Below, piece by piece: positions 31,780 through 43,920 of a DNA stretch of 64,000 bases (the stretch's first letter is position 1; the number at the start of each line of letters is the position of its first letter). Source of the DNA: Escherichia coli (GTDB lineage Bacteria; Pseudomonadota; Gammaproteobacteria; Enterobacterales; Enterobacteriaceae); NCBI RefSeq assembly GCF_045037415.1, contig NZ_CP173438.1; one strand, written 5' to 3'. Made by a program: the position numbers and the translations under genes. Below the pieces are notes generated by a model that made no database searches, was not told the origin of the DNA, and worked only from the letters and a program-made list of their open reading frames with translations.

Positions 31780-32274
31780 GTGAAGATTGATGCATCCCGT
31801 CGGGGCATACTCACTGGTCGCTGGCGCAAAGCCAGTAACGGTATCCGTCCGCCCTGGTCCGGTGATGAATCTCATTTTCTGACCCATTGCACCCGCTGCG
31901 ACGCCTGTATTAATGCTTGTGAAAACAACATTCTGCAACGCGGCGCGGGTAGCTATCCGAGCGTTAATTTCAAAAATAACGAGTGCAGCTTCTGTTACGC
32001 CTGCGCGCAGGCTTGCCCCGAATCGCTATTTTCTCCGCGCCACACCAGGGCCTGGGATTTGCAGTTCACCATTGGGGACGCGTGCCTGGCGTATCAGTCA
32101 GTTGAATGCCGCCGCTGTCAGGATAGCTGTGAGCCAATGGCAATTATCTTTCGCCCGACGCTCTCCGGGATCTACCAGCCGCAACTTAATAGCCAACTTT
32201 GCAACGGATGTGGAGCATGTGCAGCCAGCTGTCCGGTATCAGCCATAACTGCGGAGTATCTCCATGCACACTAA
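31780..32274 (+). CDS. napF: ferredoxin-type protein NapF
   Basis: 164-aa ORF with several CxxCxxCxxxCP 4Fe-4S motifs; first gene of the nap operon. Confidence 0.9.
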   Translation: MKIDASRRGILTGRWRKASNGIRPPWSGDESHFLTHCTRCDACINACENNILQRGAGSYPSVNFKNNECSFCYACAQACPESLFSPRHTRAWDLQFTIGDACLAYQSVECRRCQDSCEPMAIIFRPTLSGIYQPQLNSQLCNGCGACAASCPVSAITAEYLHAH

Positions 32275-32527
32275 CTGGCAAGTTTGCAGCCTGGTCGTGC
32301 AGGCCAAAAGCGAACGAATTTCAGACATCAGCACCCAACTGAACGCCTTTACCGGCTGTGAAGTTGCTGTCAGCGACGCGCCGAGCGGTCAGTTGATTGT
32401 GGTGGTGGAAGCAGAAGACAGCGAAACGCTGATCCAAACCATTGAGTCAGTACGCAACGTAGAGGGCGTGCTGGCGGTGTCGCTGGTTTATCACCAGCAG
32501 GAAGAGCAAGGTGAGGAAACACCATGA
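32264..32527 (+). CDS. napD: NapA chaperone NapD
   Basis: 87-aa ORF overlapping napF by 11 nt; its stop overlaps the native napA ATG (ATGA at 32524-32527). Confidence 0.9.
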   Translation: MHTNWQVCSLVVQAKSERISDISTQLNAFTGCEVAVSDAPSGQLIVVVEAEDSETLIQTIESVRNVEGVLAVSLVYHQQEEQGEETP

Positions 32528-32563
32528 AACTCAGTCGTCGTAGCTTTATGAAAGCTAACGCCG

Positions 32564-40377: not shown

Positions 40378-42317
40378 TGCCAGAAATTGGTAACGGGCTG
40401 CTGTGTCTGGCGCTAGGAATTGCGCTGCTGCTGTCTGTGTATCCGCTATGGGGCGTGGCGCGCGGGGACGCGCGCATGATGGCGTCTTCCCGCTTGTTTG
40501 CCTGGCTGCTGTTTATGTCTGTGGCTGGCGCATTTCTGGTGCTGGTCAATGCTTTCGTGGTCAACGACTTTACCGTCACCTATGTTGCCAGCAACTCCAA
40601 TACCCAGCTTCCGGTGTGGTATCGCGTGGCGGCTACCTGGGGCGCGCATGAAGGCTCGCTCCTGCTGTGGGTGCTACTGATGAGCGGCTGGACCTTTGCG
40701 GTAGCGATTTTTAGTCAGCGTATTCCGCTGGATATTGTTGCCCGCGTACTGGCGATAATGGGGATGGTCAGTGTCGGCTTTTTGCTGTTCATTCTCTTTA
40801 CCTCTAACCCGTTCTCACGCACGCTGCCGAATTTCCCGATTGAAGGGCGCGATCTTAACCCGTTGTTGCAGGATCCGGGGCTGATTTTCCACCCGCCTCT
40901 GCTCTATATGGGGTACGTCGGTTTCTCGGTGGCGTTTGCTTTTGCCATTGCATCTTTGTTGAGTGGGCGTCTGGACAGCACTTATGCGCGTTTTACTCGT
41001 CCGTGGACGCTGGCTGCGTGGATCTTCCTGACGCTCGGCATTGTGCTCGGTTCCGCATGGGCCTATTACGAACTCGGCTGGGGCGGCTGGTGGTTCTGGG
41101 ATCCGGTAGAAAACGCCTCGTTTATGCCGTGGCTGGTGGGGACTGCGCTGATGCACTCACTGGCGGTCACTGAACAACGCGCCAGCTTCAAAGCGTGGAC
41201 ATTACTGCTGGCAATCAGTGCCTTCTCGTTGTGTCTGCTGGGGACTTTCCTCGTGCGTTCCGGCGTGCTGGTATCGGTACACGCGTTTGCGTCTGATCCG
41301 GCGCGCGGTATGTTTATCCTCGCCTTTATGGTGCTGGTGATTGGCGGTTCGCTGCTGCTGTTTGCCGCGCGTGGACACAAAGTTCGCTCACGCGTAAACA
41401 ATGCGCTGTGGTCGCGGGAATCTTTGCTGTTAGCGAACAACGTTTTGCTGGTAGCCGCGATGCTGGTGGTGTTGCTGGGGACGTTGCTGCCGCTGGTGCA
41501 CAAGCAACTGGGACTGGGCAGTATTTCGATTGGCGAACCGTTCTTCAACACCATGTTTACCTGGCTGATGGTGCCGTTTGCGCTACTGCTTGGTGTCGGC
41601 CCTCTGGTGCGCTGGGGACGCGATCGCCCACGTAAAATCCGCAATTTGTTGATTATCGCCTTCATCTCTACGCTGGTGCTGTCGCTGCTGTTGCCGTGGC
41701 TGTTCGAAAGCAAAGTTGTGGCGATGACGGTGCTCGGCCTGGCAATGGCCTGCTGGATTGCGGTGCTGGCAATTGCGGAAGCTGCGCTGCGTATTTCACG
41801 CGGCACGAAAACCACCTTCAGTTATTGGGGGATGGTGGCAGCTCACCTGGGGCTGGCAGTGACAATTGTTGGCATTGCTTTTAGTCAGAACTATAGCGTT
41901 GAGCGTGATGTGCGCATGAAGTCCGGCGATAGCGTCGATATTCATGAATATCGCTTCACCTTCCGTGATGTCAAAGAAGTGACTGGTCCAAACTGGCGTG
42001 GCGGTGTGGCGACTATCGGCGTAACGCGAGATGGCAAGCCGGAAACAGTGCTGTATGCAGAAAAACGTTATTACAACACTGCCGGGTCGATGATGACCGA
42101 AGCGGCGATTGACGGTGGCATCACGCGTGACCTGTACGCGGCGCTCGGTGAAGAGCTGGAAAACGGCGCGTGGGCCGTGCGTCTTTACTACAAACCATTT
42201 GTTCGCTGGATTTGGGCGGGCGGGCTGATGATGGCGTTGGGCGGACTGCTGTGTCTGTTTGATCCTCGCTATCGTAAGCGCGTGAACCCGCAGAAAACTG
42301 CGCCGGAGGCTGCATGA
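40374..42317 (+). CDS. ccmF: cytochrome c-type biogenesis heme lyase subunit CcmF
   Basis: 647-aa polytopic membrane ORF with WWD motif ([13 protein letters not shown]). Confidence 0.95.
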
Positions 42318-42871
42318 AGCGCAAGGTATTGTTAATTCCGTTGATTATCTTCCTGGCGATTGCCGCGGCGCTGCTGTGGCAGCTGGCGCGTAATGCCGAA
42401 GGGGATGATCCGACCAATCTGGAATCGGCGCTCATTGGCAAGCCAGTGCCGAAGTTTCGCCTCGAATCACTGGACAATCCGGGGCAGTTTTATCAGGCGG
42501 ATGTGCTGACTCAGGGCAAACCAGTGCTGCTTAACGTCTGGGCGACCTGGTGTCCGACCTGCCGTGCGGAACATCAATATCTGAATCAGCTTTCTGCGCA
42601 GGGCATCCGCGTGGTCGGCATGAACTATAAAGACGATCGCCAGAAGGCAATCAGCTGGCTGAAAGAGCTGGGCAATCCTTACGCGCTAAGCCTGTTTGAT
42701 GGCGACGGCATGTTAGGGCTGGATCTCGGTGTCTATGGCGCGCCAGAAACGTTCCTTATTGACGGCAACGGCATCATTCGCTATCGCCATGCGGGCGATC
42801 TCAATCCTCGCGTCTGGGAAGAAGAGATCAAGCCACTGTGGGAGAAATACAGTAAGGAGGCCGCACAATGA
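42314..42871 (+). CDS. ccmG: thiol:disulfide interchange protein CcmG (DsbE)
   Basis: 185-aa ORF; thioredoxin motif WCPTC. Confidence 0.95.
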   Translation: MKRKVLLIPLIIFLAIAAALLWQLARNAEGDDPTNLESALIGKPVPKFRLESLDNPGQFYQADVLTQGKPVLLNVWATWCPTCRAEHQYLNQLSAQGIRVVGMNYKDDRQKAISWLKELGNPYALSLFDGDGMLGLDLGVYGAPETFLIDGNGIIRYRHAGDLNPRVWEEEIKPLWEKYSKEAAQ

Positions 42872-43920
42872 GGTTTTTATTGGGCGTGCTGATGCTGATG
42901 ATCTCCGGCTCAGCGCTGGCGACCATCGACGTGTTGCAGTTTAAAGATGAAGCACAGGAACAACAGTTCCGTCAGCTCACTGAAGAACTGCGCTGCCCGA
43001 AATGCCAGAACAACAGCATTGCCGATTCCAACTCGATGATTGCCACCGACCTGCGCCAGAAAGTGTATGAACTGATGCAGGAAGGCAAAAGTAAGAAAGA
43101 GATTGTCGATTATATGGTGGCGCGTTACGGCAACTTCGTCACTTACGATCCGCCGTTAACGCCGCTGACCGTGCTGCTGTGGGTGCTGCCAGTAGTGGCT
43201 ATTGGCATTGGCGGTTGGGTCATATACGCCCGTTCGCGGCGTCGGGTACGCGTGGTGCCGGAAGCGTTTCCAGAACAAAGCGTGCCGGAAGGTAAGCGTG
43301 CCGGATATGTTGTTTATCTGCCGGGTATTGTGGTGGCGTTAATTGTGGCTGGCGTCAGCTACTACCAGACTGGCAATTATCAGCAGGTGAAAATCTGGCA
43401 GCAGGCCACGGCACAGGCTCCGGCGTTACTGGACAGGGCGCTGGATCCGAAAGCCGATCCGCTCAACGAAGAAGAGATGTCGCGCCTTGCGCTGGGGATG
43501 CGTACTCAACTGCAAAAAAATCCGGGAGATATAGAAGGCTGGATTATGTTGGGCCGCGTTGGCATGGCGCTGGGTAACGCCAGTATCGCCACCGATGCAT
43601 ACGCCACTGCGTATCGCCTCGATCCGAAAAACAGCGATGCTGCACTGGGATACGCTGAAGCGTTGACACGTTCATCTGATCCCAACGACAACCGCCTCGG
43701 CGGCGAACTGCTGCGCCAGTTGGTGAGAACGGACCATAGCAATATCCGTGTGTTAAGCATGTATGCATTTAATGCCTTTGAGCAGCAACGATTTGGCGAA
43801 GCCGTTGCCGCGTGGGAAATGATGTTGAAACTCTTACCTGCCAACGATACTCGCCGTGCGGTGATCGAACGTAGTATCGCGCAGGCGATGCAACATTTGT
43901 CGCCGCAGGAGAGTAAATAA
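42868..43920 (+). CDS. ccmH: cytochrome c-type biogenesis protein CcmH (fused CcmH/CcmI)
   Basis: 350-aa ORF; LRCPKCQ motif; C-terminal TPR-like region. Confidence 0.95.
   Translation: MRFLLGVLMLMISGSALATIDVLQFKDEAQEQQFRQLTEELRCPKCQNNSIADSNSMIATDLRQKVYELMQEGKSKKEIVDYMVARYGNFVTYDPPLTPLTVLLWVLPVVAIGIGGWVIYARSRRRVRVVPEAFPEQSVPEGKRAGYVVYLPGIVVALIVAGVSYYQTGNYQQVKIWQQATAQAPALLDRALDPKADPLNEEEMSRLALGMRTQLQKNPGDIEGWIMLGRVGMALGNASIATDAYATAYRLDPKNSDAALGYAEALTRSSDPNDNRLGGELLRQLVRTDHSNIRVLSMYAFNAFEQQRFGEAVAAWEMMLKLLPANDTRRAVIERSIAQAMQHLSPQESK

Follow-up and report, generated by a model that had tools for sequence, protein, structure and literature searches.

Among junctions between bacterial genes, short overlaps are the most frequent type. 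When native Escherichia coli pairs overlapping by 4 nt (distance −4) were examined with dual reporters, four out of five proved strictly coupled in translation, the remaining one, bioBF, showing no coupling, and SD motifs were found to be needed for reinitiation too (Huber et al. 2019). Reinitiation is steeply distance-dependent and dropped by 80–100% when the stop codon was shifted 38 nt upstream, and distances from −8 to +10 nt have been treated as predictive of coupling (Huber 2023). Like the pairs described below, the coupled pairs of these two studies (Huber 2019, 2023) are co-directional, share a 4-nt ATGA overlap and carry the SD inside the upstream gene; many of them encode subunits of one complex. 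bioBF has the same 4-nt overlap, yet is uncoupled, which means that an overlap alone is no proof of coupling.

In K-12, the operon b2208–b2194 is collinear with the one analysed here, consists of the same 15 genes at about 98% DNA identity, and has the same distance at every junction (supplementary gene-pair list of Huber 2023). The two differ in the ccmH-narP spacer, which measures 210 nt in K-12 vs 34 nt in the window (the whole 64,000-nt stretch of E. coli DNA that was analysed), and in napA, where the window has one extra T (32589) relative to K-12. Publications already cover the operon and the distances at its junctions, as well as the general association of 4-nt overlaps with translational coupling, and in this respect the locus is ordinary. 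Our joint reading, which we hold to be quite probable, is that of the known aeg-46.5 operon with pairwise coupling acting in blocks and a napA frameshift that is a probable assembly error.

Operon layout and junction distances

The window contains the E. coli napFDAGHBC-ccmABCDEFGH (aeg-46.5) operon at 31780–43920 on the + strand (Table 1). Its 15 genes follow one another on one strand in the order napF-D-A-G-H-B-C-ccmA-B-C-D-E-F-G-H, and PGAP names all of them. Gene coordinates are those that PGAP assigned in a record 100% identical over 32264–43920, and the junctions were recomputed on the window; in megablast searches the operon matched annotated E. coli records at 100%. With a coverage of at least 80%, it was found in 5417 of 5426 complete genomes. 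The initial annotation had let the chain begin at 32264, whereas the actual first gene is napF, starting at 31780.

Table 1. Features of the nap-ccm operon and its flanks in the window.
Feature	Coordinates	Strand	Remarks
napF control region	31632..31666	+	FNR-like TTGATCCTGCTACA at 31632-31645; NarP/NarL 7-2-7 TACCCCGATCGGGGTA at 31651-31666; read from sequence
napF	31780..32274	+	GTG start, 164 aa; PGAP annotation of identical record, ORF confirmed
napD	32264..32527	+	87 aa; 11-nt overlap with napF
napA	32524..35011	+	2488 nt; start within ATGA overlap with napD; frameshifted according to PGAP
napG	35018..35713	+	starts 6 nt past napA stop; SD GGAGAAGGTG within napA 3' end
napH	35700..36563	+	14-nt overlap with napG
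napB	36560..37009	+	ATGA overlap with napH
napC	37019..37621	+	9 nt after napB
ccmA	37634..38257	+	GTG start; 12 nt after napC; weak SD (−3.8 kcal/mol)
ccmB	38254..38916	+	ATGA overlap with ccmA
ccmB-ccmC spacer	38917..38957	+	41 nt, U-rich; sole break in chain
ccmC	38958..39695	+	41 nt after ccmB
ccmD	39692..39901	+	ATGA overlap with ccmC
ccmE	39898..40377	+	ATGA overlap with ccmD; strong SD (−10.3 kcal/mol)
ccmF	40374..42317	+	ATGA overlap with ccmE
ccmG (dsbE)	42314..42871	+	ATGA overlap with ccmF; SD −9.5 kcal/mol
ccmH	42868..43920	+	ATGA overlap with ccmG; SD AAGGAGG, −12.1 kcal/mol
Bidirectional intrinsic terminator	43927..43958	.	GC-rich hairpin 43927-43949, then TATTTTTATT; common to convergent narP

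Transcription of the unit would be controlled by nitrate and anaerobiosis from one promoter region ahead of napF and would end at an intrinsic terminator past ccmH. TACCCCGATCGGGGTA is a perfect 7-2-7 site, and the centres of the putative FNR and NarP/NarL sites are 20 bp apart. This spacing of TTGATCCTGCTACA and TACCCCGATCGGGGTA matches the positions −64.5 and −44.5 reportedly assigned by Darwin & Stewart. The hairpin between ccmH and narP has an MFE of −26.2 kcal/mol (z = −6.6). A second promoter, serving ccmA from inside napC, is said to have been described by Tanapongpipat in 1998. A sigma-70 consensus scan, which says nothing about promoters that are weak or depend on an activator, yielded no + strand promoter inside the operon, and literature searches on the ccmA promoter and on polar effects of napA mutations returned nothing directly relevant. 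An FNR-like site within napC (37557–37570, one mismatch, 64 nt before ccmA) was dismissed as being at chance level, as it is one of eight such matches in the window. Rfam revealed no RNA family inside the operon.

Eight junctions are ATGA overlaps of 4 nt (napD/napA, napH/napB, ccmA/ccmB, ccmC/D, D/E, E/F, F/G and G/H), two are longer overlaps (napF/napD, −11; napG/napH, −14) and three are short gaps (napA/napG, +6; napB/napC, +9; napC/ccmA, +12). The ten overlaps named in the initial annotation are thus all true, with lengths from 4 to 14 nt and a 1-nt overlap at none of them. Its rule that consecutive genes overlap or lie less than 15 nt apart holds for 13 of the 14 junctions and fails at ccmB/ccmC, which it had not listed; at +41 nt this is the only junction of the 14 that breaks the chain.

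The number of overlaps is beyond chance. Overlapping same-strand neighbours make up 10/14 pairs in the operon vs 6/27 in the rest of the window (Fisher p = 0.006), and −4 pairs 8/14 vs 3/27 (Fisher p = 0.003). For E. coli, 24% of all unidirectional pairs have been published as lying at −8 to +6; the operon has 9 of 14 in this range (binomial p = 0.0014). Against a within-operon rate of 40–50%, which is our own estimate, the share at −8 to +10 (10/14) gave only p = 0.02–0.09.

Probable coupling within blocks

By the −8 to +10 nt criterion (Huber 2023), coupling is predicted for 10 of the 14 junctions, namely the eight at −4 together with +6 and +9, while −11, −14, +12 and +41 are outside this range. 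At the overlaps, the stop codon of the upstream gene lies within or beside the next start, with the SD inside the upstream 3' end; in the proposed mechanism, a terminating ribosome would restart on the next gene (termination-reinitiation), a step that we infer. Candidate coupled blocks are napF-napD-napA, napG-napH-napB, ccmA-ccmB and ccmC-D-E-F-G-H. The gaps of +6, +9 and +12 may correspond to looser coupling or to independent translation, and at the +41 spacer between ccmB and ccmC essentially no reinitiation would be expected. For the −4 overlaps, coupling of neighbouring pairs is a plausible and reasonable inference from the tested E. coli pairs; a search of the accessible literature for coupling experiments on nap or ccm junctions found none. 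The earlier proposal of coupling across about 11.6 kb is tenable for the individual overlaps, by analogy, and not for a single chain, given the gaps of +41, +12, +6 and +9. Coupling probably acts in blocks rather than along one 11.6-kb chain, and this is how a claim of coupling for the nap-ccm operon, which goes beyond direct observation, is best worded.

Translation signals at the starts bear on a different explanation, in which the overlaps would have arisen passively, through genome compaction and the turnover of start and stop codons, with every gene being translated on its own from a separate RBS and no functional coupling. SD duplex energies were −5.8 kcal/mol or lower at 12 of the 14 downstream starts (the top ~12% of the operon background; exceptions ccmA and ccmC), and the SD motifs of the 14 downstream genes are far stronger than this background (Mann-Whitney p = 4e-8). 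The SD of napG is strong (−8.6 to −9.0 kcal/mol); ccmC has none upstream (−3.0 kcal/mol), and its start region is predicted to be accessible. Altogether, 11 of the 14 start regions have a predicted accessibility within about the top quartile of operon positions. The idea that burial of the RBS in structure forces coupling was rejected, most start regions being predicted to be more open than average. Because SD motifs are present at 12/14 and open starts at 11/14, sequence alone cannot separate coupling from independent initiation. Good SD motifs at 12 of 14 genes, and a predicted openness that at 11 of 14 starts exceeds that of roughly three quarters of the operon, would also permit fully independent translation; bioBF, a −4 overlap without coupling, and a simulation reported to show that codon structure alone can give rise to overlap lengths (PMC3887535) point in the same direction.

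Conservation argues against a purely passive origin. In E. albertii, 11 of the 12 covered junctions have the distances of the window, napC/ccmA being called +14, not +12. A nap-linked copy in Citrobacter shares 9 of 11 distances and differs at napC/ccmA (+20) and ccmB/ccmC (+76), both of them non-overlapping. Among 120 proteobacterial ccmC loci, −4 is the dominant distance (ccmA/B 27/63, ccmD/E 13/19, ccmE/F 33/55), and other proteobacterial ccm (System I) clusters have −4 or −1 at ccmA/B, C/D, D/E, E/F and F/G and a long spacer between ccmB and ccmC. Published cross-species junction medians agree with this conserved pattern. From Enterobacteriaceae to Pasteurellaceae, Vibrionaceae and Burkholderiales, the same junctions retain the −4 phase, and the ccmB/C gap is retained as well. 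Moreover, overlaps are enriched over both the local and the genome background, coupling was seen in four of the five E. coli −4 pairs that were tested, and reinitiation, too, was found to need SD motifs. We consider it improbable that the overlaps are merely passive. The linkage of the two gene sets is less widespread: nap adjoins ccm in few of the 120 sampled loci, e.g., in E. albertii, Citrobacter and one Burkholderiales genome, and the nap and ccm genes of Vibrio natriegens were published as separate.

The extra base in napA

Not all genes of the operon are intact in the window, as napA carries a +1 insertion. The extra T at 32589 shifts the frame, leading to a TAA stop at 32641–32643 after 39 codons, and deleting one T restores an napA ORF of 828 aa. 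This allele is present in 17 of 5420 genomes. Over 14.5 kb, this base is the only difference between the window and the assembly of Esc26, a member of the same clone in which napA is intact. The identical insertion recurs in strain 98212, which differs at 64 of ~3,070 aligned positions (~2%) around napA. In comparison with K-12, no frameshifting insertion in an intact coding gene of the window was found besides those in napA and yejB. The one-base insertion in yejB (57683) creates the same 12-mer, CTGCCGGTTCTC, and is patchy among the same projects, independently of the napA insertion; this resulting 12-mer is the feature common to both. Indels in ompC leave the reading frame unbroken, the gene in the window being a clean ORF of 374 codons. 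A methylation-linked basecalling error at a BsaI/Eco31I site (GGTCTC) was considered and rejected, the K-12 yejB site being GGAAACC, not GAGACC.

The intact napA of Esc26, the same base in a divergent strain and the same 12-mer in yejB make an assembly artefact likelier than a biological event, and the napA frameshift is, judging from these sequence comparisons, most likely an error of the assembly consensus. It follows that the operon is probably intact in the living strain. The artefact reading is unprovable without the raw reads. The napA "pseudogene" looks like a recurrent error that also hits yejB and is unfit for biological conclusions until it has been checked against reads.

A true loss-of-function mutation would, after the stop at codon 39, leave 2.37 kb of napA mRNA untranslated, and Rho termination or mRNA decay would lower napGHBC and partly ccm, lost reinitiation at napG being a minor effect. 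In favour of such a mutation, the window does contain the insertion, and napA is a pseudogene by PGAP in three projects that are independent of one another. At ~33184–33400, 550–750 nt past the stop, there are 80-nt windows rich in C and poor in G (C/G up to 2.2), and mRNAs of E. coli that stay untranslated over long distances have been noted to be highly unstable (Huber 2023). We nevertheless regard a real mutation as unlikely in view of the otherwise identical Esc26, of strain 98212 with its 64 differences, and of the patchy, independent yejB insertion, the only other coding frameshift insertion. The suggestion in the initial annotation that a frameshift in napA could disturb napG translation is correct in that the frameshift is present and that, if it were real, the premature stop 2,374 nt before napG would abolish reinitiation there. 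Since napG has a strong SD of its own, Rho-type polarity or mRNA decay would be the likelier damage, and the frameshift itself is probably an artefact.

A bypass of the shift, whether through programmed +1 frameshifting or through a start at an in-frame TTG (32564), has hardly any probability. The frame following the insertion stays open from 32564 onwards, and a protein begun there would by chance carry two adjacent arginines ahead of the native ARA cleavage site. The TTG lacks a preceding SD (−0.1 kcal/mol), inspection of the insertion site by eye revealed no slippery motif of a recognised type, and the shifted arrangement is not conserved, being limited to 17/5420 genomes and absent from the isogenic assembly. 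The native signal-peptide helix, the part that NapD binds, would be lost.

The insertions at napA 32589 and yejB 57683 could instead be real, sequence-specific mutations that arise independently in divergent E. coli lineages. If true, the insertion in napA would, owing to the tight packing of the operon, shut off periplasmic nitrate reduction at a stroke and have a polar effect on napGHBC.

The ccmB-ccmC spacer

The only interruption of the chain is conserved: a long gap between ccmB and ccmC is nearly always present, with a median of +70 nt and overlap in only 4 of 70 proteobacterial loci. The complex was published with the stoichiometry CcmA2B2C1D1, which places the conserved break at the change in subunit ratio. 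The spacer may uncouple a two-copy CcmA2B2 module from a one-copy CcmC1D1 module. The notion that both CTGCCGGTTCTC-creating insertions are real recurrent mutations and this milder one are judged together, as improbable. The coincidence of a long, conserved spacer with the A2B2/C1D1 change in stoichiometry offers a small, testable idea; if true, junction spacing in the nap-ccm operon would encode subunit ratios.

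Operon layout and flanking elements

In an identical record, PGAP labels the operon genes as napF, napD, napA, napG, napH, napB, napC, ccmA-F, dsbE (= ccmG) and ccmH, with yojO/eco upstream and convergent narP downstream. The initial annotation let the chain start at 32264; its true start lies one gene earlier, at the GTG of napF. Several complete E. coli chromosomes match the segment 32264-43920 at 100% identity, and a match with ≥80% coverage is present in 5417 of 5426 complete genomes; K-12 b2208-b2194 is collinear with the operon at ~98% identity.

An FNR-like and a NarP/NarL site were read from the sequence upstream of napF, with a spacing that we take to fit the published positions -64.5 and -44.5. 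Another FNR-like sequence, TTGATTGCCATAAA, lies within napC, roughly where a ccmA promoter has reportedly been placed; it may be a chance match because it is one of eight one-mismatch matches in the window. The promoter-like element divergent from napF is listed as the constitutive yojO promoter in a genomic SELEX study (PMC3946193). Downstream, a strong hairpin acts as a terminator common to ccmH and narP. The ccmH-narP spacer measures 210 nt in K-12 vs 34 nt in the window, and the window hairpin (43927-43951) aligns to K-12 on either side of the extra ~150 nt there.

Elsewhere in the window, ompC is intact, with several small indels relative to K-12 of the kind usual for OmpC, whereas the near-identical assembly Esc10 carries a 16-bp deletion and has ompC annotated as frameshifted. 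The yejO remnant is flagged by PGAP as frameshifted, partial and containing an internal stop; K-12 yejO is split by an IS5 that the window lacks.

Features of the operon and its surroundings
Feature	Position	Strand	Remarks
Rfam matches outside the operon	18797-18987 (+), 22648-22741 (-), 49768-49793 (-), 45979-46052 (-)		two naRNA4 (REP-type) copies, MicF upstream of ompC, L25 ribosomal-protein leader, tRNA-Pro
ompC	23075-24196	+	one clean 374-codon ORF
FNR-like site	31632-31645		upstream of napF
NarP/NarL site	31651-31666		perfect 7-2-7, upstream of napF
Promoter-like TTGAGA-16-CATAAT	31720-31747	-	
nap-ccm operon (aeg-46.5)	31780 (napF GTG)-43920 (ccmH stop)	+	
12-mer in napA	32582-32593	+	
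napA extra T	32589		GGT CTC to GGTTCTC
napA premature stop	32641-32643		after 39 codons
FNR-like site in napC	37557-37570	+	one mismatch, 64 nt 5' of ccmA start
ccmB-ccmC spacer	38917-38957		41 nt, U-rich, no SD; only long spacer of the operon
ccmH-narP spacer	43921-43954		one terminator hairpin
Hairpin with U-rich flanks	43927-43958		-26.2 kcal/mol, z = -6.6
yejO remnant	44985-45848		autotransporter gene
yejB	56992-58087	-	frameshifted by extra base at about 57683; stop after 161 codons
12-mer in yejB	57680-57691	-	

Junction distances and their conservation

Recomputed on the window, the distances from napF to ccmH (negative, overlap; positive, gap; in nt) are, in order, -11, -4, +6, -14, -4, +9, +12, -4, +41, -4, -4, -4, -4 and -4. 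All junctions listed in the initial annotation are true overlaps, with the ATGA type in eight; its rule that neighbours overlap or lie under 15 nt apart also covers three short gaps it had not listed and fails at ccmB/ccmC only. Overlaps are more frequent in the operon than around it: among the 27 same-strand neighbour pairs of the window outside the operon, six overlap and three do so at -4 (Fisher p = 0.006 and 0.003, respectively). Likewise, 9 of the 14 junctions fall at -8 to +6, compared with a published 707 of 2987 unidirectional E. coli pairs (p = 0.0014); against our own estimated within-operon rate of 40-50% the excess is modest (p = 0.02-0.09). The overlap pattern is real and non-random.

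The operon is a textbook case and its junction layout is already published: in Huber et al. 2023, supplementary gene-pair data list K-12 nap and ccm distances exactly as in the window, and a cross-species table has medians of -4 for NapD/NapA, CcmA/B, CcmD/E and CcmF/G, -1 for CcmC/D and CcmE/F, and +11 for NapB/NapC. Our own sample comprised 120 proteobacterial loci found through the degenerate CcmC pattern WGTWWVWDAR. According to heuristic calls from tblastn anchors, which contain some start-codon errors, a -4 overlap occurs at ccmA/B in 27/63, ccmD/E in 13/19, ccmE/F in 33/55 and ccmF/G in 14/37 loci. Window distances recur at 11 of 12 covered junctions in E. albertii (napC/ccmA called at +14 vs +12) and at 9 of 11 in the nap-linked copy of Citrobacter werkmanii, which differs only at the non-overlapping spacers napC/ccmA (+20) and ccmB/ccmC (+76). 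C. werkmanii has two ccm clusters on separate contigs (loci L031 and L032), just one of which adjoins nap genes; the -4 overlaps are kept in both.

Translational coupling and the napA and yejB insertions

In published tests of native E. coli pairs with -4 overlaps, coupling was strict in four of five, SD motifs contributed in four of five, and reinitiation fell by 80-100% at a distance of 38 nt. In the operon, SD-like motifs that rank within the top ~12% of the background (Mann-Whitney p = 4e-8) precede 12 of the 14 downstream starts; ccmA (GTG start, +12) and ccmC (+41) lack them. By predicted opening energy over -18 to +7, 11 of the 14 internal starts rank no higher than the 26th percentile among operon positions, which gives no sign of structural sequestration; ccmE, ccmG and ccmH combine average structure with the strongest SDs. 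As sequence features, SD motifs and accessibility are equally compatible with reinitiation and de novo initiation. The best reading would be coupling in blocks (napF-D-A, napG-H-B, ccmA-B and ccmC-H), with looser links across the +6, +9 and +12 gaps and no reinitiation across +41. The initial proposal of coupling over ~11.6 kb is right in part: pairwise coupling, which we infer, is plausible, but the chain is broken at ccmB/ccmC.

Removal of the extra T restores an 828-aa NapA. If the frameshift were real, ribosomes would halt 2,374 nt before napG, making reinitiation there impossible; napG would rely on its own SD (-8.6 to -9.0 kcal/mol), and, with so much mRNA left untranslated, Rho-dependent termination or decay would be favoured. 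Windows rich in C and poor in G are located around 33184-33400. The insertion is present in only 17 of 5420 genomes: 15 near-identical "Esc" assemblies, ECKH-100 and strain 98212, the latter differing from the window at 64 positions over the ~3 kb compared (window ~31056-34126). Over 14.5 kb, the extra T is the sole difference between the window and Esc26, which equals Esc10 in genome size and protein accessions and has an intact napA.

Relative to K-12, just one further single-base insertion shifts the frame of a coding region in the 64-kb window; it affects yejB, which is intact in Esc10 and K-12. It is a different edit (K-12 reads GGAAACC), and both edits yield the 12-mer CTGCCGGTTCTC, on opposite strands. 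Carriers of the yejB insertion number 19 of 5061 genomes and come from projects overlapping those of the napA carriers. Each insertion shows a patchy recurrence, over 17-19 E. coli assemblies from a few projects, and the two are uncorrelated within one clone, Esc10 having only that in napA and Esc26 only that in yejB. Insertions creating CTGCCGGTTCTC suggest a systematic fault in assembly or basecalling. The patchy carriers, the intact isogenic Esc26 and the matching yejB 12-mer argue against a real napA insertion, for which we judge a recurrent consensus error the likeliest cause. Thus, the frameshift suggested to perturb napG translation is present in the window but probably an artefact.

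The ccmB-ccmC break

The long ccmB-ccmC gap is kept across Proteobacteria, with a median of +70 nt and overlap in only 4 of 70 loci by the same heuristic calls. Cryo-EM gives the composition CcmA2B2C1D1, from which we infer that this conserved break sits exactly where subunit copy number drops from two (CcmA2B2) to one (CcmC1D1).
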